A stretch of DNA of 64,000 bases, from contig CAZVEX010000004.1 in assembly GCA_964625535.1 (NCBI GenBank), forward strand, positions 38,166 through 102,165, written 5' to 3'. Positions 17,965 to 63,299 of the stretch are shown piece after piece. A model generated the notes under the pieces. The model did no database searches, was not told the origin of the DNA, and was given only the letters and a program-made list of their open reading frames with translations. The stretch comes from an uncultured Gammaproteobacteria bacterium. GTDB taxonomy: Bacteria > Patescibacteriota > Microgenomatia > Daviesbacterales > UBA10151. A program made the translations under genes and the position numbers. How positions within the stretch are numbered: the stretch's first letter is position 1; every line of letters starts with the position of its first letter.

Positions 17965-18540
17965 ATGGACATAAAACCTACCCTAGTGGCAGCGTGGTTT
18001 GGCGCTGTCCTCACATCTTTAATATTTGCTCTTTTTTTTCTCATCTATTTGTCAACCGATAAAATCATCAGCAGTCAAGATCAAAATTTCAAACTTTACG
18101 CGGCCCTGCCGCCCGACAATAACAGGTTTTCTCAAAATATTGTCTATCTGGACGCCAGATCGCTCATGGTAAAAAACTTTTTTCAAGGCTACCGTTCTCC
18201 TCTTTCCGAATTAAACGGTCTTTTTGTTGAAGTGGCTGATAAATACGGACTGGACTGGCGGCTTCTTCCCGCCATTGCCATGCAGGAATCATTGGGAGGC
18301 AAAAAGGTAATCAAAAATTCTTTTAACCCCTTTGGATACGGCATCTACGGCAATCTGGTCATCAAATTCTCGTCCTGGGAGGAGGCCGTGGAAAAAGTGG
18401 GCAAAGCTCTAAAACAGGATTATTTAAATCAGGGCCTAAACACTCCGGATAAAATCATGGCCAAGTATACTCCACCATCCCTTGAAAAAGGCGGAGCCTG
18501 GGCTAAAGGAGTTAAATCCTTCATGCAGGAACTTCAGTAG
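17965..18540 (+). CDS. GH73-like peptidoglycan hydrolase (glucosaminidase/FlgJ-like domain), membrane anchored
   Basis: N-terminal TM. LDWRLLPAIAMQESLGGKKVIKNSFNPFGYGIYG fits the GH73 pattern (AQAALESGWG…YNLFGIK). Paralog of the next gene. Confidence 0.5.
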   Translation: MDIKPTLVAAWFGAVLTSLIFALFFLIYLSTDKIISSQDQNFKLYAALPPDNNRFSQNIVYLDARSLMVKNFFQGYRSPLSELNGLFVEVADKYGLDWRLLPAIAMQESLGGKKVIKNSFNPFGYGIYGNLVIKFSSWEEAVEKVGKALKQDYLNQGLNTPDKIMAKYTPPSLEKGGAWAKGVKSFMQELQ

Positions 18541-18611
18541 ATTTGACTTAAAGCAAAAAATCTGCTATACTACCGGTTTCCCTGTACCAAGCGGTACGGG
18601 GTTTTTCTTTT

Positions 18612-19148
18612 ATGAACAAAAAAGTATTTCTTATCTTTTCGATATTTATTTCTTTGATTTTTGCCAACTCAAAAGTGTTGGCCGGCCCTGCTGTGGAAAC
18701 TCCTTCTTTGCAGATTGAAGCAAAACGATTAGACGAACAAGCCCAAGTCCTTTCGCAGTATTTAGCTTCCTATGATTCGCCTCTTCAATACCATGCCCAG
18801 GATTTTATTGACGCGGCCAATGAGTACAATCTTGACTGGAAACTTATTCCTGCCATTGCCGGTGTGGAATCCACCTTTGGCCGGTTTATTCCGGGAGGGT
18901 ATAATGCCTGGGGCTGGGGGGTTTACGGAAGCCAGGCTATTTATTTTAAGTCATGGAGAGAGGGCATTTTTGAGGTGGCCAGGGGGTTGAGAGAAAATTA
19001 TCTGGACCAGGGGCTCAAGGATCCTTATCAAATAAACAGGGTCTATGCCCAGTCTCCTCACTGGGGCAGGAAAGTAGCTTTTTTTATGAAAGATCTGGAC
19101 AGCTTTGTCAAAATAGCGGCTGTTTCAGGACAGCCCAATTTAAGGTAA
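18612..19148 (+). CDS. GH73-like peptidoglycan hydrolase, secreted paralog
   Basis: Signal peptide. LDWKLIPAIAGVESTFGRFIPGGYNAWGWGVYG. The C-terminal half can be aligned with the previous gene (…YLNQGLNTPDKI / …YLDQGLKDPYQI). Confidence 0.5.
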   Translation: MNKKVFLIFSIFISLIFANSKVLAGPAVETPSLQIEAKRLDEQAQVLSQYLASYDSPLQYHAQDFIDAANEYNLDWKLIPAIAGVESTFGRFIPGGYNAWGWGVYGSQAIYFKSWREGIFEVARGLRENYLDQGLKDPYQINRVYAQSPHWGRKVAFFMKDLDSFVKIAAVSGQPNLR

Positions 19149-24541: not shown

Positions 24542-24883
24542 ATGGCACGGATCAAGCGCGGTGTTACATCTCACAAAAGACATAAGAAGATTCTAAAACT
24601 GACCAAAGGTCAGAGGGGGGGCAGAAGTAAGCTGATCAGAGAAGCAAAGTCTTCTTTGTTGCATGCCGGAGAGTACGCTTTTGCCGGCAGGAAACGCAGA
24701 AAAAGAGACATGAGAAGGCTTTGGATTACCCAGCTGAATGCGGCAGTCAAAACAGAAGGTTTAAGCTATTCCAAATTCATCAACAAACTTAAAACTAAAG
24801 ACATAAAACTTGATAGAAAAATCCTGGCTGATTTAGCAGTTAATCATCCGGAGCATTTTAAAAAAATAGTTGCAGAACTGTGA
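24542..24883 (+). CDS. rplT: 50S ribosomal protein L20
   Basis: MARIKRGVTSHKRHKKILKLTKG…RRLWITQLNAA is a canonical L20 sequence. Confidence 0.9.
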   Translation: MARIKRGVTSHKRHKKILKLTKGQRGGRSKLIREAKSSLLHAGEYAFAGRKRRKRDMRRLWITQLNAAVKTEGLSYSKFINKLKTKDIKLDRKILADLAVNHPEHFKKIVAEL

Positions 24884-25920
24884 AACAAAAAATTTCCCGA
24901 ATTCAAAATAAGTATTTAGAAAAAATCCAAAGGGCTACCAGCTTAAAGGAACTGGATGAGATTTTTTTGGCTCTTTTTGGAAAAAAAGGGGAGGTTGACA
25001 AACTCTCAAAACAATTTAGCCAAATTTCCAAAGATGAGCTAAAAACATTAGGACCAATATTTAATAAAATCAAGCTGGAACTGGAAAGGAAGATAAGAGA
25101 TAGGCGATCTGAAATAAGAGAAGAGGGCTACAGAAAATTAGATCGGGAAAAATTGGATTTGACCGCTGTCAAGATAAAAACCCGGCAGGGACATCTTCAT
25201 CCTCTTACCCAAATTGAACAGCAAACAGCAGAGATTTTCCAAAAAATCGGTTTTGCCCAGTTTGATGCACCTCATATTGACACTGACTTTAATAACTTTG
25301 AAGTATTAAATATTCCCCAAAATCATCCGGCCCGCGACCTGTGGGATACTTTATATATAATACCGGGTAAGCTTCTCCTTCGAACTCACACCTCCAACTC
25401 CCAAATCAGAATACTAAAACAGAATAAACCTCCAATTAGACTGATGAATATCGGCCGCTGTTTCAGGTATGAAGCTGTTGATGCCAGACACGAGCATACT
25501 TTTGAACAGTTTGAATTGGTTTATGTAGACAAAAATGTCAGTATGGCTAATCTGCAATATTTATCGGAATATTTTTTGAAAGCTATTTTCGGCCCAGAGA
25601 TTAAAGTTAGACTTAAACCAAAATATTATCCCTTTGTGGAACCGGGGGTAGGGGTGGATGGATTGTGTATTTTCTGCAAAGGGAAAGCCCGCCTGCCGGA
25701 CGGGCAGGGCTGTAAAGTTTGCGGAGGCGTTGGCTGGTTAGAACTGGCCGGAGCCGGAATGATCCATCCCAAAGTACTGAAAGCCGGCGGGATAGACCCT
25801 AACGTATACTCGGGAATAGCTTGGGGCTTTGGACCGCCCAGAATGGCTATGCTTAAATTTGGCATTGAGGACATCAGATTATTTAACAGCGGGGATCTGA
25901 AATTTTTGGAGAAATTTTAA
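24880..25920 (+). CDS. pheS: Phenylalanyl-tRNA synthetase alpha subunit
   Basis: HPARDLWDT, class II motifs (FRYEAVDARHEHTFEQFE, GFGPPRMAML), and a CxxC…CxxC zinc knuckle (CIFCKGKARLPDGQGCKVCGG). Confidence 0.9.
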   Translation: MKQKISRIQNKYLEKIQRATSLKELDEIFLALFGKKGEVDKLSKQFSQISKDELKTLGPIFNKIKLELERKIRDRRSEIREEGYRKLDREKLDLTAVKIKTRQGHLHPLTQIEQQTAEIFQKIGFAQFDAPHIDTDFNNFEVLNIPQNHPARDLWDTLYIIPGKLLLRTHTSNSQIRILKQNKPPIRLMNIGRCFRYEAVDARHEHTFEQFELVYVDKNVSMANLQYLSEYFLKAIFGPEIKVRLKPKYYPFVEPGVGVDGLCIFCKGKARLPDGQGCKVCGGVGWLELAGAGMIHPKVLKAGGIDPNVYSGIAWGFGPPRMAMLKFGIEDIRLFNSGDLKFLEKF

Positions 25921-27518
25921 TGAAAGTATCAATTTCCTGGTTAAAAGAGCTGGTTAATTTAAAGGTTTCACTGGATGAGTTAATCCATCTTTTACCTCTA
26001 AGATCCGTCAGTATAAAAGATCTAAACTCCGACTCAATCGAGCTGGATATGAAAGGCTACAATCGGGCAGATTTACTTTCCATGAGGGGAGTGGCAAGGG
26101 AAGTTGCCGCTATAACAGATTCAAAATTAAATTTTTCTGATGAGAAAACGAAATTTGCCAATCTATCAAATGTAGAGGTTGATGTACAAAATAAAAGCCG
26201 GTGTCCTGTTTACGCAATAGCAGCAATAGAAAACCTAAAAGTTGAACACTCAAATGAAATATGGGTAAAAAAATTATCCGATTGCGGAATACGCTCAATA
26301 AATAATGTGGCAGATGTAACCAATTTAGTGATGGTGGAATTCGGCCAGCCCATGCATGCTTTTGATGCAAATAAGGTAAGTGGTAGCATCAGAGTAAGAG
26401 TTGCCAAAAAAGGAGAAAAAATTATTACTTTAGACGAGAAAGAGAGAAATTTAAGTGAGGAGGATTTATTAATTGCAGATAAAAAAGGTCCAATTGGCAT
26501 TGCCGGAGTAATGGGAGGAAAAGATAGTGAGGTCTCCAATTCAACAACCTCAATTTTGCTGGAAGCAGCTATTTTTGATCCTGTATCCATTAGAAAAACA
26601 GCCCAAAGACATGGGCTTCCTTCAGAAGCTGCTAAAAGATTCCAGCATGGGTTAACCAAAACTAATCTTTTGCAAGCTCTATCAGCTGCCATTAAAATGT
26701 ATGAAGATTTGGGAGGCAAGTTAACAGCTATTACACTCACCGGTAATTTAGAAGATGAAACTAAAACTATTACCTTAACTCAAGAAAAAATTAATTCTTT
26801 AATTGGAGTTGATATTCCACCAAGGCAAGTCAAAGATTCTCTTCAAAAACTTGGCTTCATTTTGCAAGGAGGTGAAGTAATTACACCTTACTGGAGACTT
26901 GATATAGATAATGAGGAAGATTTAATTGAGGAAGTGGCCAGGATGTATGGATATGAGAACATTCCCCCTCAAGAACTTCGGGGTGAACGGCCAAAGCAAA
27001 TTGACCAGAGTTTACCTGATTTTATCTACAACCTCAAAAAAACCTTGGCTAACCTGAGTTTAACAGAAGTCCAAACTTATTCTTTTTATTCAACACAAGT
27101 CATCGAAAACTTGAAACTTGAAACTAAAAACCTAATAAAAATTTCCAACCCAATCTCATCGGAAACAGAATTTATGAGAGATAATCTCTGGCCTAATCTT
27201 TTGGAAATTACTGCCAAAAATATCAAAAACGGTTTTAAAGATATAGCTATTTTTGAGATAGGAAAAGCATACCAACCTCCCCAAAAAGAAACTTATCATC
27301 TGGCCATAGCGCTGGTTAATGGCACAGATAATCCTATCCAGGAACTCAATCAAATCTTCCAACACCTCGGAGGTGTCAGGTTCGAAAATGTACTGCAAAA
27401 CAGAGAACATTTTCACCCGACGAGATATGTTGATGTTATGGCCGAAGTTCACCCACGGATAGTTAATAAGTTTGGGATTGACAATAGGGTAGCTGTTTTG
27501 GAAATAGAATTAGTTTAA
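25920..27518 (+). CDS. pheT: Phenylalanyl-tRNA synthetase beta subunit, short form
   Basis: B3/B4, B5 (ADKKGPIGIAGVMGG) and FDX-ACB-like C-terminal domains are present. It lacks the N-terminal tRNA-binding domain: 532 aa compared with about 800. Confidence 0.85.
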   Translation: MKVSISWLKELVNLKVSLDELIHLLPLRSVSIKDLNSDSIELDMKGYNRADLLSMRGVAREVAAITDSKLNFSDEKTKFANLSNVEVDVQNKSRCPVYAIAAIENLKVEHSNEIWVKKLSDCGIRSINNVADVTNLVMVEFGQPMHAFDANKVSGSIRVRVAKKGEKIITLDEKERNLSEEDLLIADKKGPIGIAGVMGGKDSEVSNSTTSILLEAAIFDPVSIRKTAQRHGLPSEAAKRFQHGLTKTNLLQALSAAIKMYEDLGGKLTAITLTGNLEDETKTITLTQEKINSLIGVDIPPRQVKDSLQKLGFILQGGEVITPYWRLDIDNEEDLIEEVARMYGYENIPPQELRGERPKQIDQSLPDFIYNLKKTLANLSLTEVQTYSFYSTQVIENLKLETKNLIKISNPISSETEFMRDNLWPNLLEITAKNIKNGFKDIAIFEIGKAYQPPQKETYHLAIALVNGTDNPIQELNQIFQHLGGVRFENVLQNREHFHPTRYVDVMAEVHPRIVNKFGIDNRVAVLEIELV

Positions 27519-28112
27519 TTCTGTAATTTCTAACTTTAATTTATCATCTTTATATTCAAATTTAAAAGTCACGGCTTTCTCTTTATTATTAGTAATATAC
27601 AAATTCTGCTTGGAGTTTGCGCCTTTGGAATAAGGATTTGAATAAATTGAAACCCCATACTCCCGGGCAATTTCCGGAATGGGCATAAAATCATGGTTCA
27701 CCGGAGCATATGAGTCCAGTCCTGCATCTTTGGCTACCCAATAAATTAAAGAGGCCAGATGGCATACTCCGTCCCCAAATAAATAGCCGTCTGTCTTAAA
27801 ACCCTCCTGCCCGTTAAAATGGGCATTGGTAGTTTTGACTACTTTATCTTTATATTTAGGCAATACATCATCATGAAAGGCAAAAGTTTCATCCGGCTTC
27901 AATATAAATCCTGATTCACCCATCAGATCCAAAGTATGTAAAATATTGTATTTAAATACCTCATTAACTGATTTGACCGGATATCTGTTTTCCAGGGAAA
28001 TCTCATGGGATGAAAGCATCACTACCTGGGCCCTGGGTACAAAGGATTGGCTGGTTAAAGAAATGATTAAAGCTGTAGAAATTTTAACTGCAATGTCAGG
28101 CATCATAAGCAA
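27510..28112 (-). CDS. VanW-like domain protein
   Basis: GDGVCHLASLIYWVAKDAGL resembles the VanW core (GGGVCQVSTTLYNA…AGL). Adjacent to the class A PBP. Confidence 0.45.
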   Translation of the reverse strand: MLMMPDIAVKISTALIISLTSQSFVPRAQVVMLSSHEISLENRYPVKSVNEVFKYNILHTLDLMGESGFILKPDETFAFHDDVLPKYKDKVVKTTNAHFNGQEGFKTDGYLFGDGVCHLASLIYWVAKDAGLDSYAPVNHDFMPIPEIAREYGVSIYSNPYSKGANSKQNLYITNNKEKAVTFKFEYKDDKLKLEITELN

Positions 28113-28148
28113 AAATTATAACATACTATGAGATATTTTGCAAGTGGT

Positions 28149-30701
28149 TTACAGTGCTACGGTGACGCCGATGGAAGTGGAATGGGTGGCGTTGTTTTGA
28201 TCCTCCAGGGTGGCGGTAATGGTGTGCGAGCCTTTATCACCCTCGGGAAACTCCACATGCAGGGCAAAGGGGCCGGAAGTTAAAGTTGATTTTTCCCCTC
28301 CGTCAATTAACCAGGTCACTTTTTTCACTCCCGCAGGGGAGTTGACCGAAGCCAGCACATCAAACACCCTGGGTACATTAGCCCCGTTTGACACATTGAC
28401 TATCTCGATTACTCCGCCTCCGCTGGAAAATCCGGGTACTCCGGAACAACCTTTACTGGCTCCCACAAACCTGGGATCGGGCGCAGTCAAAACCCACTCG
28501 TCAATGCCTTTTTGCCAGAGATTGGCGCCTGTGGGATCATTTTCCTGCAACACCACCACATCTTTTTCATCCGACTCTTCTCCGTCATTGGCTAATCTGT
28601 GTGGATTAGTTCGACAAACCTTGCCGCGCTGATAGCCGGAAGATTCACCCTTGGGCTCCGTCCCTCTGATAAAATACTCTTTTCTGGTGGGAGAGCCGCC
28701 ATGAGGGGTACCTGTCAGCAACCCGTCCACATCCATTTGCACCACATTTCCGGGCCGCTCAAAAGCTTCATTGGGTTTATCTTTTAAAACTTCCCTCATG
28801 ATTCGGTTCCAGATGGGGGAAGCTCCGGTCACGCCCGAGGCAATTTTGGGATCAAGAGGGGTGTTGTCATTGTTTCCCACCCACACGCCGGCCACATAGG
28901 AAGGGGTGTACCCTACTGTCCAATTATCTCTTTTTTCATCGGTGGTACCGGTTTTAACAGCCACTGTTTTGCCAGCTACATTCAAGATGGAATTTGCTCC
29001 AAATACGGCGGTTCTGGCGCCGTTATCGGATAAAATATCGGAAACAATAAAGCTTATCCCTTCGTCCAACACTTTTCGCCCCTCCGAGGGCTTATATTCA
29101 AAAAGAGTTTTTCCACTTGAGTCTGTCACTTTTAGAATAGATATCGGATCGTGCTGGCGGCCCTTGTCGGCCAAAGTACCAAAAGCCACAGCCAAATCCA
29201 GCAGCCTCACTTCCCTTCCACCCAGAGTCAGGGAAAGTCCCACAGAGGCAACATTTTCTTCAGACGGTTCCCAGGATAAAAGCCCCATCCGGTAACCCAA
29301 CTCCATCACATCTTTAACTCCGTTTAAAGCCAGCATTTTGACTGCCGGCACGTTTAAGGAGTTGCCCAGGGTGTAGCGTACCTGCATGGGGCCGCGGTAT
29401 TGGCCGTCGTAATTTACCGGCACGTACTTTGGTTTGTTCCCTCCAGGAAATTCGGTTTTGACATCCAATATGGTAAAGTTGGCCGTGTAGCCTTTTTCCA
29501 AACCTTTGGCATAATTAACCGGTTTGGTGGCCGAACCGGGCTGGCGCAAAGACAGGGCGGCATTAACATTGGGCTCAAAAGTGCAACTTTTTCCCTCAAG
29601 GCAACCTTCCGGCTCGGACTTGCCAAAATAATCCTTTGAACCTACCAGAGCCAAAATTTGCCCAGTTTTAGCATCCAAAACAACAGATGAAGCATTGCCC
29701 ACCTTGCTGCTTTTGAGTTTTTCCACCTCTTCTTTGACTATTTTCTGGGCCTCTGCCTGCAAGCTATAATCCAAAGCAGTAGTCACCTTCAAGCCCCCCT
29801 GTTCTACCAGCACATCTCCAAATTGTTCGATCAGTTTTTCCTTGACATAAAGCACAAAGTGAGGGGCTTTAAAACCTACTTCGTTTTGGGCGGTTCTGTA
29901 AGTTAAAAGCGCTTCCTTTGCCTGATCTGCCTGCTCCTCGGAAATATAGCCGTCCTCTACCATCCGTCTAAGAACCGCTTCCTGACGGACTTTGGCCAGT
30001 TCCGGTTTTGAGCCGTAAGGGGAATAAACTGAAGGGCGTTGAGGTAGTCCTGCCAAAAGGGAAGCTTCTGCCAGATTCAAATCTTTGGCCGATTTTCCAA
30101 AATACAAATTGGCAGCCGCCTCAATTCCATAAGCCGTACCTCCATAAGGAATCTCGTTTAAATACATCTCCAAAATTTGATCTTTGGAGTATACTCTTTC
30201 CACCTGGATGGCCAGAATAAATTCCTTGAACTTGCGGGTGATGGTCCGCTCGCCCGATAACAGGGCATTTTTGATCAGCTGTTGAGTCAGGGTGGAGCCT
30301 CCTTCTACCCGGCGGTGAAATATCAAATCAAATATTGACCTGGTAATGCCGGCCATGGAAAAACCCGAATGCTGGTAAAAATCTTTATCCTCAATGGCAA
30401 TGGTGGCTTGTTTGACATGCTCGGGAATATCTTCCAGTTTGATGGGGGTACGGTTTTGGTTTTGGTAAATGTCATAAAGAAGCTCACCGTTGCGGTCATA
30501 AATTTTGGTGGCCTGGGCCACTTCGCGGTTAGTCAAATCTTGCGGGGAGGGTATTTGGGTGGCAAAAAAAATCACCGTGGAAAAAAGCAAAAGCAAAAAT
30601 CCGATTACCAAAAGCAGCATCCAGTTGGATAAATTGGATAAAAGTTTAATGCGGCCAATTTTGAAGCCTTCTTTCCTTAGTTTCCACGACCCCAATGCCA
30701 T
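28149..30701 (-). CDS. Class A penicillin-binding protein (GT51 transglycosylase plus transpeptidase) with a C-terminal Ig-like extension
   Basis: N-terminal TM. GT51 motifs (EDKDFYQHSGF, GGSTLTQQLIKN, RKFKEFILA). Transpeptidase GSATKP (SxxK) and KTGTT. 850 aa. Confidence 0.85.
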   Translation of the reverse strand: MALGSWKLRKEGFKIGRIKLLSNLSNWMLLLVIGFLLLLFSTVIFFATQIPSPQDLTNREVAQATKIYDRNGELLYDIYQNQNRTPIKLEDIPEHVKQATIAIEDKDFYQHSGFSMAGITRSIFDLIFHRRVEGGSTLTQQLIKNALLSGERTITRKFKEFILAIQVERVYSKDQILEMYLNEIPYGGTAYGIEAAANLYFGKSAKDLNLAEASLLAGLPQRPSVYSPYGSKPELAKVRQEAVLRRMVEDGYISEEQADQAKEALLTYRTAQNEVGFKAPHFVLYVKEKLIEQFGDVLVEQGGLKVTTALDYSLQAEAQKIVKEEVEKLKSSKVGNASSVVLDAKTGQILALVGSKDYFGKSEPEGCLEGKSCTFEPNVNAALSLRQPGSATKPVNYAKGLEKGYTANFTILDVKTEFPGGNKPKYVPVNYDGQYRGPMQVRYTLGNSLNVPAVKMLALNGVKDVMELGYRMGLLSWEPSEENVASVGLSLTLGGREVRLLDLAVAFGTLADKGRQHDPISILKVTDSSGKTLFEYKPSEGRKVLDEGISFIVSDILSDNGARTAVFGANSILNVAGKTVAVKTGTTDEKRDNWTVGYTPSYVAGVWVGNNDNTPLDPKIASGVTGASPIWNRIMREVLKDKPNEAFERPGNVVQMDVDGLLTGTPHGGSPTRKEYFIRGTEPKGESSGYQRGKVCRTNPHRLANDGEESDEKDVVVLQENDPTGANLWQKGIDEWVLTAPDPRFVGASKGCSGVPGFSSGGGVIEIVNVSNGANVPRVFDVLASVNSPAGVKKVTWLIDGGEKSTLTSGPFALHVEFPEGDKGSHTITATLEDQNNATHSTSIGVTVAL

Positions 30702-30821: not shown

Positions 30822-31790
30822 ATGGTAGATTTTGAACAAACAATAAGTAGGCGTGCTTTTTTGCGCTATACGGGAGTTACTAGCTTAGTTTTTGGAAGCC
30901 TATTTTCACCCGCATGTCGTAGCCTGATACCAATGGTTCAAGGGGAAACCCCCAACCACGAATTAGATAAAAATCTTGAGGACGAATTTAAAATTAGACT
31001 CATGACCCTAAGGGATTATTACAGGGAGTTAGGTTTAGAATACCCTGAACACCAATCATATTTAAGGACAGTTCCTCAAGAATGGGACGAAAGAAGATTG
31101 CAACTTTTAAAAGAAGGGCTTTTGGTTTTGCCTAAACACTTTTATCAAGATGAAAATGCCAACGACAGGATGGGTTTTATTTTATCATTCTCTAATGCAG
31201 CCGGAAGAGTAATTGATCAACCGGCCCTGATGGCTCGACACATAGAGGTAGCCCATGAAGAATTTAATGATCCGTCAATTAAGGAGCCTGTTGATATATT
31301 AGCTCATGAACTTATCCACCTACAGGTCCCGCTTACCCTAGAGCCATCCGGAATAATAGTTAATGATTTTATCACCGGTAAACCGTTTGAAGTTTTTACA
31401 AAGAGATCCCCTTGGTTTGAAGAAGTTGAGGATATTTTAGGTGGACCATTTTCCCAAATTTATGCTAAACCACTGGCTAAAATACAGGCTCTTCAAAGAA
31501 CAATTCCAAGTATGCCTAATCTCGAATATAGAGATCGAGCCTACTTTTATAATAGTCTGGCTTATGGTTTTGAAGCAGCTGTTGATCCATTCGAGCTTAT
31601 CTCTGTAATGGGAGTCCACTTTTTACATGGGAGGACTTATTTCCAAACAAGATATAGTGAAGTTCTTTCTGAGACGATGGCTGAAAAGCTGTATGATTTT
31701 ATTAAAAACAGGGTTTACAGAAACCAACAAGAGTACGAGAGGTTTCCGCTTCCAAGTTACCTTCATCCACGTTATCCACTAGTACCTTAA
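30822..31790 (+). CDS. Putative exported zinc-metalloprotease-like protein (HExxH)
   Basis: Tat/Sec-like N-terminus (SRRAFLRYTGVTSLVFGS). HELIH motif at residues about 160-164. No wider family motif recognised. Confidence 0.45.
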   Translation: MVDFEQTISRRAFLRYTGVTSLVFGSLFSPACRSLIPMVQGETPNHELDKNLEDEFKIRLMTLRDYYRELGLEYPEHQSYLRTVPQEWDERRLQLLKEGLLVLPKHFYQDENANDRMGFILSFSNAAGRVIDQPALMARHIEVAHEEFNDPSIKEPVDILAHELIHLQVPLTLEPSGIIVNDFITGKPFEVFTKRSPWFEEVEDILGGPFSQIYAKPLAKIQALQRTIPSMPNLEYRDRAYFYNSLAYGFEAAVDPFELISVMGVHFLHGRTYFQTRYSEVLSETMAEKLYDFIKNRVYRNQQEYERFPLPSYLHPRYPLVP

Positions 31791-32496: not shown

Positions 32497-33123
32497 CTAA
32501 CCAGAATAGGATACAGGAATAACTCGTTCTAAAATATCAACAATCTCTTGATTAAAAATCCTATCTCTACCTTTTGGCAAAACAAAATCTTCTAATAAAG
32601 CTGCACCATGAATTCCAATAGTCGCATCTGTTTCTAAAGTGGATGCCTCAATTTCATCCGCATAATCGTAAAGCCCTGGGATCCGGGGAATTACTGCCAC
32701 CCTCATCGGGCCAACTAAAAAAGTTCCTTCACTAACGTAACTAAGAGTCCAATAATAATCACCTCGTTGACACATCATTTGCAGAAGATTAACAGGTTCA
32801 GGAGATATCGAGTCTAATTTTTTAGGACTATCCGCAACGGGTAACCCCGCTTTTTTTAAGGCATTCATTAACGCTTGAGTTGCCTTAGGATTTGTAAACT
32901 CAAAGCTATCGGTAGCATAGTGATAAGGTACAAAAGCAATACCGACTTTTTCTCCAGTTTGCCTCATTTTAGCTAATTCTTCTAATCTTGGTAACATCAT
33001 ATTCCTAGCAGCCAAACCCAAATAATAAATACTTGGTACCACAGGAACTACCACCTCTTGTCCCTTATAAGAGAATCTCATTTTTTCAACTCCGTTAGGA
33101 AGTCCAAAATCTCGATCTAGCAT
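32497..33123 (-). CDS. Hypothetical protein
   Basis: A 208-aa ORF with ordinary composition and no motif recognised. Confidence 0.4.
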   Translation of the reverse strand: MLDRDFGLPNGVEKMRFSYKGQEVVVPVVPSIYYLGLAARNMMLPRLEELAKMRQTGEKVGIAFVPYHYATDSFEFTNPKATQALMNALKKAGLPVADSPKKLDSISPEPVNLLQMMCQRGDYYWTLSYVSEGTFLVGPMRVAVIPRIPGLYDYADEIEASTLETDATIGIHGAALLEDFVLPKGRDRIFNQEIVDILERVIPVSYSG

Positions 33124-33187
33124 AGGAGCATTTTATATTTAAAGAATACTAATGTCAAACCACTATAAGTCCTAAACCAGAGGACTC

Positions 33188-34963
33188 TTATTTTCCCTGC
33201 AGGAAATTCAGAAGAAGTTGGAGAAGACCTCTGGCAGTGGATACTCCATAAGTCATGCCGCTGGGAGGAGTGTAGCTCCTACCGCCACCGCCTCCCGAAT
33301 CCCCTGATGGTTGGGATGGTTGAGATGGCTCTGATGGTTGGGATGGTTGAGATGGTTGGGATGGTTGTTGCGGTTCGGATGGTTGGGAAGGAGGCGTGTA
33401 TGATTCTGTTGAGGGAGGAGTGTAAGTACCGGTGCTCGGTGGAGTGTAGTCCGCCGGCGGGGTGTAAGTGCTGCTGCCACCTGATCCGGAGTAGCCAGAT
33501 GGCGGGGTATAGCCGGGTGGCGGTGAATAGCCGGATTGGGGAGTAGTATAAGTAGTTGTGCCCCCACCCGGGCTGCTGCACTGACAACTGGATCCTGTCC
33601 AGGAACAACCCGGTGTCCTACCACAATCCGCTGCCGGATCGCCGCTGTATCCCCCAGAAGATCCACCGCTTCCCGGCGGCCCTCCATAGGGAGGAGCAGA
33701 ACCTTCCGGACTTGGCATATAGACTGGAGGTGTGTAGGCTCTCACCATAGCGCTGGTACACTCACAACTAGAACCGGTCCAAGAACAGCCGTACCTGCCG
33801 CATTCCGCAGCCGGATCAGGAGCTCTGTCTCCATAATAATATCCTCCGTACTGTCCGTAAGTCTGTTGGGAAGCCTGGTCTGCGGGCGGTCGGCATTTAT
33901 CCGGATTGCTTCTGCAAAAATCTTCAAACTCGCTGCGCTGTTCGGAGTTTCCAAACATACTTGGCTGGCCGGGTTGGCATTTATCCGGATTGCTGGCGCA
34001 GAATCCGGAATATTCCTGCGCTTTTTGGGCCGTTTCCCTTGTTTCACCATAATATCCGCACTGACAAGAACTTCCCGCCCAGGAACAATTGGGAGTCCTG
34101 TTGCACATATCCGTAGGATCATACCTTTGAGGAATCACGCCACCCTCACCCAACTCACCTCGGTATCCGCAATCAGCCGGATTTTGCTGACAATAAGAAA
34201 AACATGAAGCCGGATCGCTGCATCCTCCCGGACCCGTAAAAGTGCCGCCTGAAACTTCTTGGAAGCCAGAACATATCTGGAAATTGTTGGGGTCGGAACA
34301 AAAAGATCTGCATGTTCCCTCGCTCGCACACCCCCCAGGCCCCACCTGTCGCTCTCCTCCCCGCAAACCCACCTCTTCGGCAAAAGATTTACACTTACTA
34401 ATGTTTTCCTGCTGCAGGCAAAAGCTTTGGCAGGAACTGGCAGAATCGCAGCCTAAAACTTCCCTGGCTTTATCAATAATTTGACTGCTTCCCGGATCAT
34501 CAATCACTCCTCCCACTATTCCCTGGGATCTGGCAAAGGAATTACAGGTGTCGAAATTGGCCGGCACCTCGCAAAAGTTTAAACAGGCTTCATACGAGTC
34601 GCACCCCAACCGCTTTTTGGCCTCATCCAGAATTTTATCTTTTTCCGTTATGACCGGGTCATCCTGATAAAAACCTTTTTGTTTACCGTAGCTGATGCAG
34701 GATTCGCTGTTGACCGGATCCTCGCAAAAGTTGCGGCAGTCATTGTAATTTTGGCAGTTGCCCAGATCGGCAATCGGAAAATTCACCCCGTAAATTTTGG
34801 CCCGAACTTCCGGATCGACATATTGACCCGTACCTTCTTCAAAATCATCAATGCCATTATTATTATCATCAACAAAAGGGTGGGAGGGAGAAACTAAAAT
34901 ATTGGTTTGACCCAGAAGAGCCAGAAAAAAAACTATCACAAAACCGGCAATGCGTAATTTCAT
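33188..34963 (-). CDS. Secreted cysteine-rich repeat protein with a C-terminal Pro/Ser/Thr/Tyr/Gly-rich low-complexity tail
   Basis: Signal peptide MKLRIAGFVIVFFLALLG. Five modules of about 30 aa each with four Cys (for example GCDSYEACLNFCEVPANFDTCNSF). Three modules of the form C-x4-CSW-x-GSSC-x-C. The tail is YTPP/PSQPSQ-rich (…PSQPSEPQQPSQPSQPSQPSEPSQPSQPS…). Confidence 0.7.
   Translation of the reverse strand: MKLRIAGFVIVFFLALLGQTNILVSPSHPFVDDNNNGIDDFEEGTGQYVDPEVRAKIYGVNFPIADLGNCQNYNDCRNFCEDPVNSESCISYGKQKGFYQDDPVITEKDKILDEAKKRLGCDSYEACLNFCEVPANFDTCNSFARSQGIVGGVIDDPGSSQIIDKAREVLGCDSASSCQSFCLQQENISKCKSFAEEVGLRGGERQVGPGGCASEGTCRSFCSDPNNFQICSGFQEVSGGTFTGPGGCSDPASCFSYCQQNPADCGYRGELGEGGVIPQRYDPTDMCNRTPNCSWAGSSCQCGYYGETRETAQKAQEYSGFCASNPDKCQPGQPSMFGNSEQRSEFEDFCRSNPDKCRPPADQASQQTYGQYGGYYYGDRAPDPAAECGRYGCSWTGSSCECTSAMVRAYTPPVYMPSPEGSAPPYGGPPGSGGSSGGYSGDPAADCGRTPGCSWTGSSCQCSSPGGGTTTYTTPQSGYSPPPGYTPPSGYSGSGGSSTYTPPADYTPPSTGTYTPPSTESYTPPSQPSEPQQPSQPSQPSQPSEPSQPSQPSGDSGGGGGRSYTPPSGMTYGVSTARGLLQLLLNFLQGK
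33305..33368. repeat. Tandem DNA repeat (units of about 12 and 27 bp) encoding the PSQPS(E/Q)PS tail of the Cys-rich protein
   Basis: tgatggttgggatggttgagatggctc / tgatggttgggatggttgagatgg / ttgggatggttg are near-perfect tandem copies. Confidence 0.6.
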
Positions 34964-35208
34964 TTTGTTTGCTTTAATGCGTCAAAGGGATTTTTGTAAG
35001 AGGCAAAAGGATTAACATACTGGGCATTCTTATCAAACGGGTTTTGATACTGGGTTTGCAGAGAAACTGTTGGTTCTTTCCGAACACCTGGCAGGGATTT
35101 TAGAGGATTTTTAATGATTTTTTGAGAGATAAGGATAAATAAAACTGCCGCTACTATAAGTAGTAGCAGCAGGGGAGCGACTAGGGCAATTACTCCTTTT
35201 TGATTCAT
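34960..35208 (-). CDS. Small single-pass membrane protein with three NPF-containing repeats
   Basis: TM segment VIALVAPLLLLLIVAAVLFILI. Repeats YQNPFDKNAQ / YVNPFASYK / NPFDALK. Its ATG overlaps the stop of the Cys-rich gene (ATGA). Confidence 0.5.
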   Translation of the reverse strand: MNQKGVIALVAPLLLLLIVAAVLFILISQKIIKNPLKSLPGVRKEPTVSLQTQYQNPFDKNAQYVNPFASYKNPFDALKQTK

Positions 35209-35241
35209 TAACTTATTATGGACATAAGAAGTAAAACTTTG

Positions 35242-36081
35242 TCAAGTCTTCCATCTGCTGGCAGGAGTTTGAACCCGGCCCAGTTTCTGGCCAATTTTTA
35301 AAACCCAAGATAAAAGAAAATAATACAGCTTACCATGATAATGGATGGCGGCTTTTTGCAAAAGCTCTTGGGATTTATCCACCCCGATAGTTTTGGAGGC
35401 GGCTCCGTGATGATGAATAAATTTGGCAGAGGGGACAAAATAGACGGGGACGCCATACCTTTTTAATCTTCTGGCATATTCAATATCTTCAAAATAGATA
35501 AAAGTCCCTTCATCAAGTAAACCTACCTTATTAATAATCTTTCTGGGAATCAAATAGCAGGCCATGACCAAACCTTCAACTTGGGTAGGGTTTTCCCCTT
35601 GGGGTTGAAACATAAAATATGAGCCAGAACGGCCTAAAAAATATTCCTTGAAAGCACCGGTTATCGTGGGAAGATGAAAGGCGGAATCCTGCTTTGATCC
35701 GTCGGGAAAAACCAATTTTCCGCCCAAAACAGCTTCTTCTTGAAATGATTCTCCCCATTTTAACATTTGCGATAAACTGTTTTTCGCAACTTCAATATCG
35801 GAATTAAGCAGTAAAATATATTGACCTTGGGAAAATTTAATCGTTTTGTTATAGCCCTTGGAAAAACCCTCGTTTTCTTTATTTTGTAAATATTTAACTC
35901 TGGGGAGATAATCTTTAATGATCTTTTGACACTGATCTTTTGAACCATTATCCACCACAATCACTTCCATAGTTTTTTCATCAAACCCGGACTCTTTTTC
36001 GAAAATGCTTTGCAAAAGTTTTTTGGTTAAGCGGGCAGTATTGTAATTAACAATGCCAATGGAAAGTTTAAGAGAATACAT
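35242..36081 (-). CDS. Family 2 glycosyltransferase (paralog 1 of 4)
   Basis: IVNYNT…VVDNGSKD…LLLNSDIEV are the GT2 DxD-region motifs. Confidence 0.75.
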   Translation of the reverse strand: MYSLKLSIGIVNYNTARLTKKLLQSIFEKESGFDEKTMEVIVVDNGSKDQCQKIIKDYLPRVKYLQNKENEGFSKGYNKTIKFSQGQYILLLNSDIEVAKNSLSQMLKWGESFQEEAVLGGKLVFPDGSKQDSAFHLPTITGAFKEYFLGRSGSYFMFQPQGENPTQVEGLVMACYLIPRKIINKVGLLDEGTFIYFEDIEYARRLKRYGVPVYFVPSAKFIHHHGAASKTIGVDKSQELLQKAAIHYHGKLYYFLLSWVLKIGQKLGRVQTPASRWKT

Positions 36082-36955
36082 AATCTAAAACTCCTCTTCT
36101 TTGGGCAGGTCTGCCAAAAATAAATAATTTTACTGCCTCTCTAAGCAGCGCAAATTTAGTTCTGAAGTTTCCATACTTCATCCCAAAAAATAATCTGTTT
36201 CTGGTGTGATAATAATCCGTGATTGCAGAACCTACCCCTGTTGATTGGGAAACTTTATGATAAATTGCCACACTACCATTGTAAAACTTTCTAAACCCCT
36301 CATCAGATGCTCTCTTGACAAAATCGCTATCCTCAAAATATAAGAAATACTTTTCATCAAATAATCCAATTTTCTCAAAGACCTTTTTTTTGATCAAAAT
36401 ACAAGCTCCGGTTATTAAATCTGTTTCTTCCGCATTGTTATATTGACCCTTATCTATCTCATCTATTCCGCGGTGCACTGATCTAATATTATCCCAATCA
36501 AACTTACCTCCTGCATACCAGATTACTTTGCCTTGATCATTTTTTGCATATCTATCTTTATGAAACTCAAACCCTGCAGCAAAATAAATTTTGGGAGAAA
36601 CCAAGCCAATGTTTTTATCCGCCTGGGCTGTTTTGATTAACTCTTCAAGTAAATTGGCATCTTTAATCAAACAATCATTATTCATAATAAGGAAGTAATC
36701 CGCTCCCCAAATTCTCGCGTATTCTATGCCGCGGTTGTACCCTCCGGCAAAACCTAAATTTTGCCCGTTTTGCAAAACCAGAACTTCCGGATAATTTTTA
36801 ACCAGTTCTTCAACCAGTCCATCCGTTGAACCATTATCAACTACGACAGTCTTCAGCTCGCAGTCTTTCGTCTTCAGCTTTTTTAAGGATTCAAGAAATT
36901 CTAATGTATCTTTTTTACCGTTATAATTTACCGTAATTATTGCTAACTTAGTCAT
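36068..36955 (-). CDS. Family 2 glycosyltransferase (paralog 2 of 4)
   Basis: ITVNYNGKKDT…VVVDNGSTDG…IMNNDCLIKD. Confidence 0.75.
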   Translation of the reverse strand: MTKLAIITVNYNGKKDTLEFLESLKKLKTKDCELKTVVVDNGSTDGLVEELVKNYPEVLVLQNGQNLGFAGGYNRGIEYARIWGADYFLIMNNDCLIKDANLLEELIKTAQADKNIGLVSPKIYFAAGFEFHKDRYAKNDQGKVIWYAGGKFDWDNIRSVHRGIDEIDKGQYNNAEETDLITGACILIKKKVFEKIGLFDEKYFLYFEDSDFVKRASDEGFRKFYNGSVAIYHKVSQSTGVGSAITDYYHTRNRLFFGMKYGNFRTKFALLREAVKLFIFGRPAQRRGVLDYVFS

Positions 36956-37833
36956 ATTACTGATAACCCTTCAAGATATGCTCCAGCTCTTTTGGTTTTT
37001 CCCAAAAGGGAGAAAGCAATCACTCTAAAAATTAATCCCAAAACAAGAAATAATCTTACCAAAGGATAAATTCCCAAATAGTATTTTTTAAAATAATATC
37101 TGATACCCGCCAGTTCTTTGACAAAGACTTTTTCCGGCAAAGCCGGACTGCTAGCCCTTAGCAAATGAGTTACTTGTATTGACGGAGTAAAGTAAACCTT
37201 AAAACCCCCGCGACCCACTTTCTTACAAAGATCCACCTCATCCATATACATAAAAATGGATTCGTCAAATCCGCCGACTTTTTCAAAGATATGCCTTTTG
37301 ATCATAAAAAAAGCTCCTGTCACCCAACCAACTTTTTTCTCCCGCTTGAAAAAATCTTTGTTTCTGGGATGAAATGAATTGGCTATGCCAAATATCCAGG
37401 GGATAACATTGAAAGGGTTTGGCAGAAAACCGGCGCTTGGCTGCAAGTTACCATTTTCATAAACTAATTTAACGCCCAAAACGCCGCAGTCAGGATGTTC
37501 CTTAAAATATTCAAGCGACTTAAAAAGAGTGTCTTCTTCCACAAAACAATCCGAATTTAATAAAAGAATCATCAGATTGCTTGTCTTTTTTATGGCCAGA
37601 TTATTACCTTTGCTATAACCCGTATTTATTTTAGATTTAATTAGTTTTACCCATGAGTGTTTCCTCCCAATCATTTCTGCTGATCCGTCTGCCGATGCAT
37701 TATCAAATACAATTACTTCTATCTTGTTCTTGAGCTTAGCCTGACAACTGACAACTGACAACTGCAGTCTCCTCAAACACTCATCAGTAATATTTTTGGT
37801 ATTAAAGCTTAAAATAATTATTGATAGATCCAC
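36952..37833 (-). CDS. Family 2 glycosyltransferase (paralog 3 of 4). Contains the heptanucleotide repeat.
   Basis: IIILSFNTKN…IVFDNASADGS…LLLNSDCFVEED. Start and stop overlap the neighbouring GT2 genes. Confidence 0.75.
   Translation of the reverse strand: MDLSIIILSFNTKNITDECLRRLQLSVVSCQAKLKNKIEVIVFDNASADGSAEMIGRKHSWVKLIKSKINTGYSKGNNLAIKKTSNLMILLLNSDCFVEEDTLFKSLEYFKEHPDCGVLGVKLVYENGNLQPSAGFLPNPFNVIPWIFGIANSFHPRNKDFFKREKKVGWVTGAFFMIKRHIFEKVGGFDESIFMYMDEVDLCKKVGRGGFKVYFTPSIQVTHLLRASSPALPEKVFVKELAGIRYYFKKYYLGIYPLVRLFLVLGLIFRVIAFSLLGKTKRAGAYLEGLSVI
37741..37761. repeat. Heptanucleotide tandem repeat (CTGACAA)x3 inside GT2 paralog 3
   Basis: ctgacaactgacaactgacaactgcag encodes QLSVVSCQ on the minus strand. 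Because the unit length is not a multiple of 3, a change in copy number would shift the frame. Confidence 0.5.
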
Positions 37834-38693
37834 AGCTTTGCCTTTCTGTAATGCTCGAGCATTTTAATTCCGGCCAAAATAATATCCCTCAAAACTGGAG
37901 GATATCTATTATAATAATGTTTCCTGTAAAAAATTCTCATGGCGGAAGCTCCATGAGAGACGGCCACGGCTTTTTCCTTTTTGGCAGACGAACCTTTAAA
38001 GTGAATGATTTTGACCTCGGGATAAAAATAAATTTTCCAGCCTTTTTCTTTTAGTAAGTAACAAAACTCAATGTCTTCCCCGTTCCAAAAATAATCCGTG
38101 TCCCACCAGCCGACTTGTTCCCCGGCAATTTTTCGAACCATCAAAAAAGCTCCTGTCAGAGAGTCTATCTCATGAATTTTATGGATATCCAAATGCGTGG
38201 CAGTATAGCCTGCAAAAAGTTTCCATTTGGGAAATAATTTTGCCAGGCCCGAAAAATAAGCAAAAGCGTTCCAGGGAGTGGGAAAACCCCGATGGCAAGA
38301 ATAATCCAATCTGCCGTCCGGCAGTTCGACCCGACAGGTGATGGCTCCTATGTCGGGATTACTCATCAAAAACCCATAAGTTTTTTGAATGGCTTTATCT
38401 ATAATAACAGTATCGGGATTTAAGAATAAAATAACTGGAGCCTTGGCCAGCTTCACGCCTTCATTATTGCCCGCAGCAAATCCTAGATTTGATTTATTTT
38501 TAATTATTTCAACCTTGGGAAATTTTTCTTTAACTGCCTCAACCGAATTATCCGAAGATGCATTATCTACTACAATAATTTGCCAATTGTCTTTCTGTGT
38601 TTTGTTTTCAAAGATAGATTCCAAACAATTCAGCAATAAATCCTCAACATTATAGTTAAGGATAATGATTGATAAATCAGGGCTTTGGGCCAT
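37818..38693 (-). CDS. Family 2 glycosyltransferase (paralog 4 of 4)
   Basis: IIILNYNVEDL…IVVDNASSDNS…ILFLNPDTVI. Confidence 0.75.
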   Translation of the reverse strand: MAQSPDLSIIILNYNVEDLLLNCLESIFENKTQKDNWQIIVVDNASSDNSVEAVKEKFPKVEIIKNKSNLGFAAGNNEGVKLAKAPVILFLNPDTVIIDKAIQKTYGFLMSNPDIGAITCRVELPDGRLDYSCHRGFPTPWNAFAYFSGLAKLFPKWKLFAGYTATHLDIHKIHEIDSLTGAFLMVRKIAGEQVGWWDTDYFWNGEDIEFCYLLKEKGWKIYFYPEVKIIHFKGSSAKKEKAVAVSHGASAMRIFYRKHYYNRYPPVLRDIILAGIKMLEHYRKAKLWIYQ

Positions 38694-55794: not shown

Positions 55795-56484
55795 CTATTC
55801 AAATGGATCCGCTTTGCCGGTCACGGTCAAGGGTACAGCAGTAGATACTTCGGTTCTGGCCAGCTTGGAAATCAGCTCTTCCTCTCCCGAGGAGATTTGG
55901 GGAAGCGGGGAGTCGATACTGCCCAAATTAGCCGGTATCGGAGTAAACATCGCTTCAATTGCCAAATTAGCGTCTACTATATCCCCCCCTCTACCTGATG
56001 AAACTTCTATATTAGTAACCCTCATTAGCCTGGGAGAGCTCTCAATGCTGCTTAAAAACCTACCGAGAAGGTTTTTGGCTCCGACAGCTTCCAGTCTAGC
56101 CCCAAAACTTTGCCCGGTGGATGATTTATTCCCGCTACCTGCTCCAAGAGACAATGCAGTAATAACAAATCCATTTTCGTTTGCTATATTCTGAAGTAAA
56201 ATAATAGTGCCGGCAAAATCTTTTTCTCCAGGCAGAGACGAAAGAACATAACTTACTTGACGGCGCAAACTATCTTCATCCAGACCCTCAAGCGCCTCAA
56301 CCTTGGTATTTAAAAACTCCGATCTGGTCCTAAAATCCTGCTCAAGGCGGGAATTTTTTAAGAATACTCCGATTTGGGGAATCAACACAAAGGTTAACAG
56401 GATAAGGCATGAAACAACCACCGCTGCCGGAAAAATAAACAGCCTGTATTTTTTATAAAATTTGCCCAAACTTTCTTTGTTCAT
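55795..56484 (-). CDS. pilO: Type IV pilus assembly protein PilO-like
   Basis: Bitopic membrane protein directly downstream of pilN, with N-terminal TM, coiled coil and a ferredoxin-like C-terminus. Assignment is by context. Confidence 0.55.
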   Translation of the reverse strand: MNKESLGKFYKKYRLFIFPAAVVVSCLILLTFVLIPQIGVFLKNSRLEQDFRTRSEFLNTKVEALEGLDEDSLRRQVSYVLSSLPGEKDFAGTIILLQNIANENGFVITALSLGAGSGNKSSTGQSFGARLEAVGAKNLLGRFLSSIESSPRLMRVTNIEVSSGRGGDIVDANLAIEAMFTPIPANLGSIDSPLPQISSGEEELISKLARTEVSTAVPLTVTGKADPFE

Positions 56485-57005: not shown

Positions 57006-57007
57006 CT

Positions 57008-58045: not shown

Positions 58046-58071
58046 AGGCAGTAGTTTTATTGTAACACTTT

Positions 58072-61646: not shown

Positions 61647-61658
61647 ATAATTATTATA

Positions 61659-63278: not shown

Positions 63279-63299
63279 ATATCCATGATATCACAAGAT

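Follow-up and report, generated by a model that had tools for sequence, protein, structure and literature searches.

In a 64,000-nucleotide (nt) stretch of contig CAZVEX010000004.1 (assembly GCA_964625535.1; hereafter the window), we analysed a gene encoding a cysteine-rich secreted protein of 591 amino acids (aa) and a small gene that lies upstream and overlaps its start codon. Our results suggest that these two open reading frames (ORFs) constitute a two-gene cell-envelope module, which among named records was found only in the candidate phyla radiation (CPR, Patescibacteria). With moderate confidence, we propose that the large protein is exported and serves as a non-enzymatic surface scaffold stapled by disulfides, and that its C-terminal helix, the small partner protein with its NPF motifs, or both keep it at the membrane.

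The two genes were found together throughout the family. The partner has an N-terminal transmembrane (TM) helix followed by ...EPTVSLQTQYQNPFDKNAQYVNPFASYKNPFDALKQTK, with three NPF motifs at the end, and the TGA stop codon of its gene overlaps the ATG of the Cys-rich gene. Scanning one genome per GTDB species, we confirmed 91 relatives of the Cys-rich protein and retained 79 distinct loci. All-against-all clustering of the 659 flanking ORFs of these loci identified the Cys-rich protein in 70 loci and a same-strand upstream partner in 67; manual inspection of the other loci showed divergent NP(F/L) tails in most of them, which brings the partner to about 75 of the 79. Of the 67 loci, 33 had an intergenic gap of exactly -4 nt and 59 one between -10 and +20 nt. 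In all pairs with NCBI locus tags on both proteins, the tags were adjacent (6/6). Loci retrieved by exact look-up also contained the pair, and one Microgenomates contig carried two pairs. The 172 partner homologues were 72-102 aa long, none with a Pfam domain. The pairing was kept at 25-33% identity of the Cys-rich protein, and relatives with 13 and 10 modules also had, upstream, a gene for a small TM protein with NPF/NPL repeats. The 127 immediately flanking genes belonged to 97 different Pfam families, none of which occurred more than 7 times, and the 208-, 98- and 322-aa neighbours in the window recurred in none of the 79 loci. Because the flanks are diverse and only the partner is conserved, the pair is self-contained and the conserved unit consists of two genes. 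As a third conserved component, the clustering offered only a Cys/His-rich family, present in 19 of the 79 loci and absent from the window.

The Cys-rich protein had been described in a preliminary description as a signal-like N-terminus followed by five modules of about 30 aa with the pattern C-x5-C-x3-C-x8-C, three modules of a second type with the pattern C-x4-CSW, and a repetitive tail ending in a short hydrophobic stretch. All the sequences quoted there were located in the 591-aa ORF. The five Cys4 modules (type A) are present; four have the spacing claimed and the fifth is C-x5-C-x3-C-x6-C, with Cys at positions 70/76/80/89, 121/127/131/140 and 172/178/182/191 in modules 1-3 and at 212/218/222/231 and 248/254/258/265 in modules 4-5. 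The repeat period is 51, 51, 40 and 36 aa rather than about 30. In 100,000 shuffles of the 591-aa protein, the type A pattern was never found more than twice. Nucleotide identity among the modules is 40-63%, and therefore the duplications of type A are old. The three modules of the second type (type B) conform to C-x4/5-C-S-W-(A/T)-G-S-S-C-(Q/E)-C, two with C-x5-CSW and only one with C-x4-CSW. Two-Cys half-modules of the form F-C-x-SNPDKC at aa 322-329 and 350-357 (type C) complete the tally of 36 Cys. The tail (aa ~463-568) is rich in P, S, T, G and Y and, as described, contains YTPP (7 copies) and PSQPS/QPSEP (4 copies) repeats; at the DNA level these correspond to tandem repeats with periods of 9/27 and 18 nt (33304-33388 and 33488-33536). 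The protein ends in GLLQLLLNFLQGK, and the identical protein sequence is encoded on 6 metagenome contigs. The type C modules, a C-terminal motif, an (I/V)LVSPSHPF motif and the overlapping partner gene had all been overlooked; the family context, the C-terminal motif and the partner gene are more informative than the protein viewed alone.

Employing a word-indexed search, we found at least 191 homologues, all annotated as 'hypothetical' and without Pfam domains; those with names came from Candidatus Daviesbacteria, Microgenomates, Gottesmanbacteria and Roizmanbacteria. Conservation per residue and module anatomy were determined from the 120 homologues listed, to which the window protein is 40-70% identical. 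Each of these has five type A modules, a signal-like N-terminus and a low-complexity region, and has between 0 and 5 type B modules, while its type C modules vary in number. Their signal segment mostly ends in an AxA-Q-type signal-peptidase site, and in one subgroup the hydrophobic N-terminal segment is followed by the (I/V)LVSPSHPF motif. No variation was seen in the 20 type A Cys, P63, D82, G97 and several other Gly; G573 in the C-terminal motif is nearly invariant. Among the invariant residues of the 120 homologues (Cys, Gly, Pro and one Asp), no candidate catalytic constellation was found.

An exhaustive phmmer search with the N-terminal domain (N-domain) against 1.84 billion cluster representatives (clusters at 50% identity) returned 1,511 representatives at E<=1e-3, 1,178 at E<=1e-10 and 256 at E<=1e-30. 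Distant members have 6-13 modules with a period of about 50 aa and the consensus GPGGC..x..C..YC..P.H..EC..FA..G; apart from Kazal and Big_13 they have no recognisable add-on domain, and one distant member with a name comes from Parcubacteria. In the species-level scan, relatives at 44-76% identity came from Daviesbacteria, Roizmanbacteria, Gottesmanbacteria, Levybacteria, Woesebacteria, Blackburnbacteria and Microgenomates metagenome-assembled genomes (MAGs), and those at 25-33% identity from MAGs labelled Parcubacteria, Jorgensenbacteria, Yanofskybacteria and 'Saccharibacteria'. Genomes carried one or two copies, and type B modules were largely limited to the five-module (Microgenomates) subfamily. 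The family is large, and every named member belongs to the CPR, most of them to Microgenomates and distant relatives to Parcubacteria. Many family MAG records are titled 'uncultured Gammaproteobacteria bacterium' (binchicken co-assemblies) and one 'Candidatus Eisenbacteria'; the proteins from these records are 50-75% identical to Daviesbacteria/Microgenomates proteins. Since the sequences group with those of CPR, the Gammaproteobacteria and Eisenbacteria titles look like placeholder or wrong taxonomy. There is also a paralogous subfamily (L008:451-3014, L047-L068) of 740-980 aa with seven type-A-like modules, extra C-x5-C-x3-C-x5-C units and tails of YYTPP/YTTP repeats in dozens of copies, resembling extensins or adhesive Tyr/Pro-rich proteins; some genomes hold both subfamilies, each with its own NPF partner.

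The preliminary description had considered both module types to be small disulfide-knot or metal-binding domains. AlphaFold2 models built on a 121-sequence alignment did not bear out the knot for type A. The full-length model had a mean predicted local distance difference test score (pLDDT) of 66.8, with the modules at 80-96 and the tail, including aa 475-577, below 50; aa 45-275 modelled alone gave a pLDDT of 84.1, a predicted template-modelling score (pTM) of 0.49 and 13 helices. In each type A module, C1 was placed ahead of helix 1, C2 and C3 one turn apart within helix 1, and C4 in helix 2, with a conserved (E/S)DP turn after helix 1; modules 1-3 have an extra linker helix with the consensus ILxxAKxxLG. 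Type A is thus predicted to be a helix-turn-helix repeat, five of which would form an all-alpha array without a knot. A knottin-type cystine knot requires at least 6 Cys in three disulfides and is mostly beta; it is impossible here, because types A and B have only four Cys per module, and type A is predicted to be helical. Type B was modelled as a beta-hairpin preceded by a short helix (pLDDT 80-92; in module 1, helix 283-289 and strands 293-296 and 299-302, pLDDT ~80), and type C as a helix followed by a C-x6-C loop.

The type C modules provide a clue to the pairing of Cys. Their profile matched the C3-C4 half of module 5 (hhalign probability 95.3%, E 2.3e-8; aligned consensus ...Y-C-x-x-N-P-x-x-C...), with Tyr/Phe at the position of C2. 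C1 and C2 were apparently lost together while C3 and C4 were kept, which argues for sequential C1-C2 and C3-C4 bridges; C3 and C4 lie opposite each other across the predicted turn, consistent with a C3-C4 bridge. The number of Cys was even in 141 of 143 mature family proteins, and the invariance of the 20 type A Cys likewise favours disulfides. From the models and these patterns, we infer that the Cys probably form disulfides with the connectivity C1-C2, C3-C4. CPR genomes widely encode DsbA/MdbA-like oxidoreductases adjoining VKOR (bioRxiv 10.1101/335083), which makes oxidative folding plausible.

In agreement with the preliminary description, the protein is without any named domain. Pfam and NCBIfam scans at E<=10 gave nothing relevant, phmmer against PDB sequences gave no match, and Foldseek of the predicted model against PDB gave nothing significant; PDB-sequence searches with a 31-column profile of 68 single type A modules and with the whole-family profile were likewise without significant match. 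Pfam, NCBIfam and PADLOC scans of the Cys-rich protein, the partner and the downstream 208-aa ORF also found nothing. EGF, granulin and anaphylatoxin domains, which the preliminary description had itself named as folds that would refute it, were not matched in the profile searches, and neither Pfam nor NCBIfam placed the window protein among Kazal, WAP or other named small disulfide domains. Membership of the Sel1-like/TPR group was rejected: Pfam Sel1/TPR models were not matched at E<=10, and neither 1KLX nor 1OUV was among the Foldseek results against PDB. The best PDB-sequence profile match was PsaN, a small lumenal Cys protein of photosystem I, in which CKFPENFTGCQDLAKQK resembles C-x-x-P-x-N-F-x-x-C-x-x-F-A-K, the consensus of the C3-C4 loop. 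The match (E = 0.16 over 17 residues) is not significant, and the architecture and biology are unrelated; we took it as chance.

The short hydrophobic end noted earlier is present, but the last ~21 aa form a conserved family motif rather than a merely hydrophobic stretch. Of 174 family proteins, 143 (82%) had the motif at 19-25 aa from the C-terminus, with the consensus [V/T]-[Q/H]-G-[V/A/I]-S-T-x-R-G-(L/F)(L/F)-(Q/D/E)-x-(L/I)(L/W)-(D/N)-(F/L/W)(L/F)..., and, with Y also admitted at the second position, the window protein fits it with TYG-VST-ARG-LLQLLLNFLQGK at aa 571-591. AlphaFold2 predicted a helix at aa 580-588 (pLDDT ~85). The hydrophobic moment of the C-terminal helix was 0.54, compared with 0.29 for shuffled sequences, and the longest stretch free of D, E, K, R, Q, N, H and P in the last 25 aa had a median of 5 and a maximum of 12 residues. 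With no uncharged run longer than 12 aa, the helix is amphipathic and does not span the membrane. Across the family, 0 to 484 aa of spacer separated the last Cys from the motif, and in some homologues the motif directly followed a type B module; variable length between two conserved ends is as expected of a stalk.

Near the pair there are putative transcription signals. On the minus strand at 35209-35245, a TTGACA lies about 30 nt upstream of the partner ATG, and after it comes an A/T-rich box resembling CATAAT. Neither the partner gene nor the Cys-rich gene has an evident Shine-Dalgarno sequence ahead of it, and the mRNA of the pair may be near-leaderless. Within the 64-nt gap 3' of the Cys-rich gene (33130-33186), a minus-strand TTGACA-17-TAAAAT (11/12 consensus matches) and a hairpin were found; their location, between the genes for the Cys-rich protein and the 208-aa ORF, suggests an end of the transcription unit. 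The MNQKG start of the partner raised the idea of a prepilin-like signal, which we rejected because it lacks Glu+5 and because the partner in Gottesmanbacteria begins differently.

Based on these results, we propose the following model. The large protein would be exported via Sec, its signal peptide removed, and it would fold oxidatively outside the cytoplasm. C1-C2 would tie the N-terminal loop to helix 1 and C3-C4 would close the inter-helix turn, so that the five modules could form a rigid, non-enzymatic all-alpha scaffold, probably ligand- or peptide-binding. The type B mini-domains, the type C half-modules and the variable, disordered and possibly glycosylated Tyr/Thr/Pro/Ser-rich spacer would together form an extended stalk. 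The C-terminal V(Q/H)G-ST amphipathic helix would keep the protein at the outer face of the cytoplasmic membrane, perhaps by lying at the membrane interface, by docking on the small protein or in both ways. The partner would be produced in coupled amounts from a shared transcript. Export is supported by the signal-like segment in all 120 homologues and by the extracellular-type add-on domains (Kazal, Big_13), and the non-enzymatic reading by the invariant residues being only Cys, Gly, Pro and one Asp. Of all this, the anatomy, the family, the conserved Cys, C-terminal motif and gene pair, the lack of a named domain and the predicted helical fold are shown, and surface retention, contact between the partner and the large protein, and a structural or adhesive role are inferred.

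Several points weigh against this model. The pTM of 0.49 means that packing between modules is uncertain, and extracellular disulfides are less secure in organisms from anoxic groundwater. The conserved N-domain could hold an unrecognised activity. The NPF tail of the partner could be cytoplasmic, and would then be unable to touch a secreted protein; by the positive-inside rule, the charge balance of the partners was N-more in 28, C-more in 38 and tied in 54. Genes for glycosyltransferases of family 2 (GT2) and for PBP1A/VanW near the pair (see below) represent local synteny and lend no support to a family-wide role in the envelope.

Other functions can be assigned to the same features. The modules might be extracellular metal-binding or redox units, the four Cys of each holding Zn, Cu, Fe or Fe-S so that metals or electrons are buffered, scavenged or shuttled at the surface. 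The four invariant Cys of type A and the anoxic groundwater habitat indicated by sample names are in line with this idea, as is the Cys/His-rich membrane-anchored protein, sometimes fused to a cupredoxin, beside the pair in 19 of 79 loci; near a distant relative in L089 there are a cupredoxin gene and a MauE/DoxX gene. However, the x5, x3, x8 spacing lacks the CxxC knuckles of known Cys4 zinc ribbon/knuckle and Fe-S (ferredoxin-type) sites, C2 and C3 are separated by a single turn of a predicted helix, metal-site hidden Markov models (HMMs) of Pfam and NCBIfam were not matched, and the Cys/His-rich neighbour is absent from the window and 60 of the 79 loci. Half-modules that are homologous to the C3-C4 half of module 5 and retain only two Cys are harder to reconcile with a Cys4 site and weaken the metal-binding reading of the preliminary description; we consider it quite unlikely. 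It is also unlikely that the protein is a lattice subunit of an S-layer or outer envelope, in which the small protein would serve as membrane stalk or anchor in the manner of SlaA/SlaB and the N-domains would tile the surface seen by cryo-EM (electron cryomicroscopy) on ultra-small groundwater bacteria. The protein is secreted, has conserved ends and a spacer of variable length, occurs in one or two copies per genome and is co-transcribed with a membrane protein, all of which would suit a lattice unit, and no other S-layer protein was identified in the window. S-layers have been reported to be prevalent in Patescibacteria (bioRxiv 10.1101/2024.05.28.596244), which also speaks for this idea. 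S-layer proteins, however, are typically Cys-poor and fast-diverging, whereas the N-domain here is 45-75% identical across candidate phyla; SLH and other S-layer Pfam domains were not matched in the Cys-rich protein, its globular part (~230 aa) is small for a lattice unit, and no sign of self-assembly or high abundance was seen here.

The C-terminus can be read in another way, as a cleavable sorting signal by which a putative dedicated sortase- or rhombosortase-like enzyme covalently attaches the protein to the wall or a lipid, the partner then not being the anchor. Such signals generally comprise a short conserved motif, a hydrophobic helix after it and often a basic last residue, and the element here is built in this way, with its motif at a fixed distance from the end. 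Known signals have a full membrane-spanning helix, though, while the hydrophobic part here is amphipathic, with at most 12 uncharged residues, and too short to span the membrane. In addition, the tail was found on no other ORF of the 64-kb window, NCBIfam models of sorting signals did not match the C-terminus, and no protease or transpeptidase gene was among the conserved neighbours; we give a sorting signal little credence. Still less probable is a freely released effector (adhesin, toxin, inhibitor or antimicrobial) acting on host or competitor cells, with the small protein aiding export or immunity. In favour of an effector, CPR bacteria live as episymbionts, secreted repeat proteins rich in disulfides commonly serve as effectors, and one distant member contains Kazal protease-inhibitor domains. 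Yet the N-domain is strongly conserved, the context is housekeeping-like and without mobile or variable-island features, toxin and defence HMMs (Pfam, PADLOC) were not matched, and the conserved C-terminal amphipathic helix argues for retention rather than release. As a bolder form of the surface-scaffold model, the pair may be an unrecognised CPR surface-anchoring system, in which the NPF tail would capture the large protein via its C-terminal helix or the groove of the helical array, and the scaffold would build an envelope or surface layer or attach to a host; this remains doubtful, if less so than the lattice, metal, sorting and effector readings.

Among known systems, the Hcp/Sel1-like proteins of Helicobacter are the best functional analogy for the five-module N-domain. 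HcpB and HcpC are secreted proteins of tandem alpha/alpha repeats, cross-linked by disulfides into a super-helical peptide-binding scaffold (PMC3851747). The N-domain resembles them as a secreted bacterial array of tandem alpha/alpha repeats with (here predicted) disulfide cross-links; it differs in having four Cys per module, as opposed to one inter-repeat disulfide in Hcp, and in its period of 36-51 aa and its consensus, and Hcp proteins have neither the C-terminal motif nor a small partner gene. For the C-terminus, E. coli PBP5 and PBP6 offer a parallel: they are exported soluble proteins that a short amphipathic helix at the C-terminus keeps on the outer side of the cytoplasmic membrane. 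The Cys-rich protein likewise has such a helix instead of a transmembrane segment; however, the sequences are unrelated, and here the helix is preceded by a V(Q/H)G-x-S-T motif and a long disordered spacer and accompanied by a dedicated small membrane protein. LPXTG/sortase, PEP-CTERM, GlyGly-CTERM and similar proteins share the motif ~20 aa from the C-terminus, the hydrophobic stretch and often the basic end, and the carriers of these signals are also surface proteins with a Pro/Thr/Ser-rich region of the wall-spanning type. Unlike in those systems, the stretch here is short and amphipathic, the window holds a single carrier, and no gene for a processing enzyme is linked. Sulfolobus SlaA/SlaB is a two-gene surface-layer system with a membrane stalk. 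It too pairs a large exported surface protein with a co-transcribed, membrane-anchored partner, but the partner described here is ~80 aa long with an NPF-repeat tail and no coiled-coil stalk, and homology was not detected.

Full-text literature searches turned up no study of the family, apart from a brief reference to 'a secreted cysteine-rich protein' in Roizmanbacteria (PMC6509639), which may or may not belong to it. The module is large and unannotated, and both its repeat unit and its partner arrangement are new; the general class is that of disulfide-rich repeat surface proteins. CPR/Patescibacteria represent a large share of bacterial diversity and are mostly uncultured, and their envelope and host-attachment machinery is little known. 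The family has ~1,500 clusters, is itself unannotated and is tied across the radiation to an equally unannotated small membrane protein. Self-contained and deeply conserved, the two-gene exported module is a candidate core envelope component. A definition of the type A domain would annotate thousands of 'hypothetical proteins'. If the pair is an unrecognised anchoring system as in the bolder reading above, the helix-turn-helix of type A with its two sequential disulfides would represent a repeat fold new among extracellular proteins. A tether formed by the NPF tail or the C-terminal helix would be a further bacterial means of retaining surface proteins.

Table. Positions of the partner gene, the Cys-rich gene and the elements of the Cys-rich protein in the window (position 1 is the first nucleotide of the window).
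Feature	Position	Strand	Remarks
Partner gene	34960..35208	-	82-aa single-pass membrane protein ending in YQNPFDKNAQYVNPFASYKNPFDALKQTK; stop overlaps start of Cys-rich gene (ATGA)
Cys-rich secreted protein gene	33188..34963	-	591 aa, 36 Cys, every Cys inside a module
N-terminal export signal (aa 1-~27)	34883..34963	-	MKLR + IAGFVIVFFLALLG + QTNILVSPS; by inspection
N-terminal all-alpha domain, five type A modules (aa ~50-265)	34169..34816	-	Predicted from AlphaFold2 and conservation
Type A module 1 (aa 70-89)	34697..34756	-	CQNYNDCRNFCEDPVNSESC
Type A module 2 (aa 121-140)	34544..34603	-	CDSYEACLNFCEVPANFDTC
Type A module 3 (aa 172-191)	34391..34450	-	CDSASSCQSFCLQQENISKC
Type A module 4 (aa 212-231)	34271..34330	-	CASEGTCRSFCSDPNNFQIC
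Type A module 5 (aa 248-265)	34169..34222	-	CSDPASCFSYCQQNPADC; short C-x6-C form
Type B module 1 (aa 287-302)	34058..34105	-	CNRTPNCSWAGSSCQC; short helix + beta-hairpin (AlphaFold2)
Type C half-module 1 (aa 309-329)	33977..34039	-	Helix + F-CASNPDKC
Type C half-module 2 (aa 340-357)	33893..33946	-	Helix + F-CRSNPDKC
Type B module 2 (aa 388-402)	33758..33802	-	CGRYGCSWTGSSCEC
Type B module 3 (aa 447-462)	33578..33625	-	CGRTPGCSWTGSSCQC
Low-complexity P/S/T/G/Y spacer (aa 463-568)	33260..33577	-	Predicted disordered; YTPP + PSQPS repeats
Conserved C-terminal motif (aa 571-591)	33191..33253	-	TYG-VST-ARG-LLQLLLNFLQGK

Within the N-terminal export segment, AlphaFold2 placed a helix at aa 2-18. 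Upstream of the pair, four GT2 genes (35242-38693, minus strand) are arranged in tandem, each overlapping the next, the last one 33 nt from the partner gene; their products could glycosylate the Ser/Thr/Pro-rich stalk. Downstream (24880-30701) there are genes for PBP1A, VanW and PheST, of which the class A penicillin-binding protein (PBP; transglycosylase + transpeptidase + Big_7) and the VanW-like protein are encoded at 27510-30701 on the minus strand. The order pair-PBP1A-VanW-PheT/PheS was kept in the Daviesbacteria-like genomes L006, L008, L013 and L019. GT2 genes were found in 15 and PBP1A in 10 of the 79 loci, in close Daviesbacteria-like relatives only, and a cell-wall or glycosylation operon was therefore rejected as the family-wide context.

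The Cys/His-rich family (L011:5538-6695, L012:2351-3502, L044:866-3475, L024:3111-5645 and 15 further loci) was mostly found beside the seven-module subfamily. Its members are ~385 aa long with an N-terminal TM helix and the motifs HTGEGH, CYHG, CVHAAGH and CHNGAFMEN; some are duplicated or have a cupredoxin-like fusion, and none gave a convincing Pfam match.

Among other genes of the window, the 208-aa ORF downstream of the Cys-rich gene (32497-33123) had no homologue in related loci and no Pfam match. The 322-aa ORF (30822-31790, plus strand), also without Pfam match and not recurring, has a twin-arginine-like N-terminus (SRRAFLRYTG). At 17965-19148 (plus strand), two adjoining small secreted or membrane proteins gave sub-cut-off Pfam matches to a glucosaminidase domain (mannosyl-glycoprotein endo-beta-N-acetylglucosaminidase). 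A type IV pilus cluster is located at 55795-63803 (minus strand) and comprises PilM, a PilO-like protein, a 593-aa ORF without assignment, and five or six genes for pilin-like proteins that bear a methylation motif (GFTL(I/V)E) at the N-terminus.

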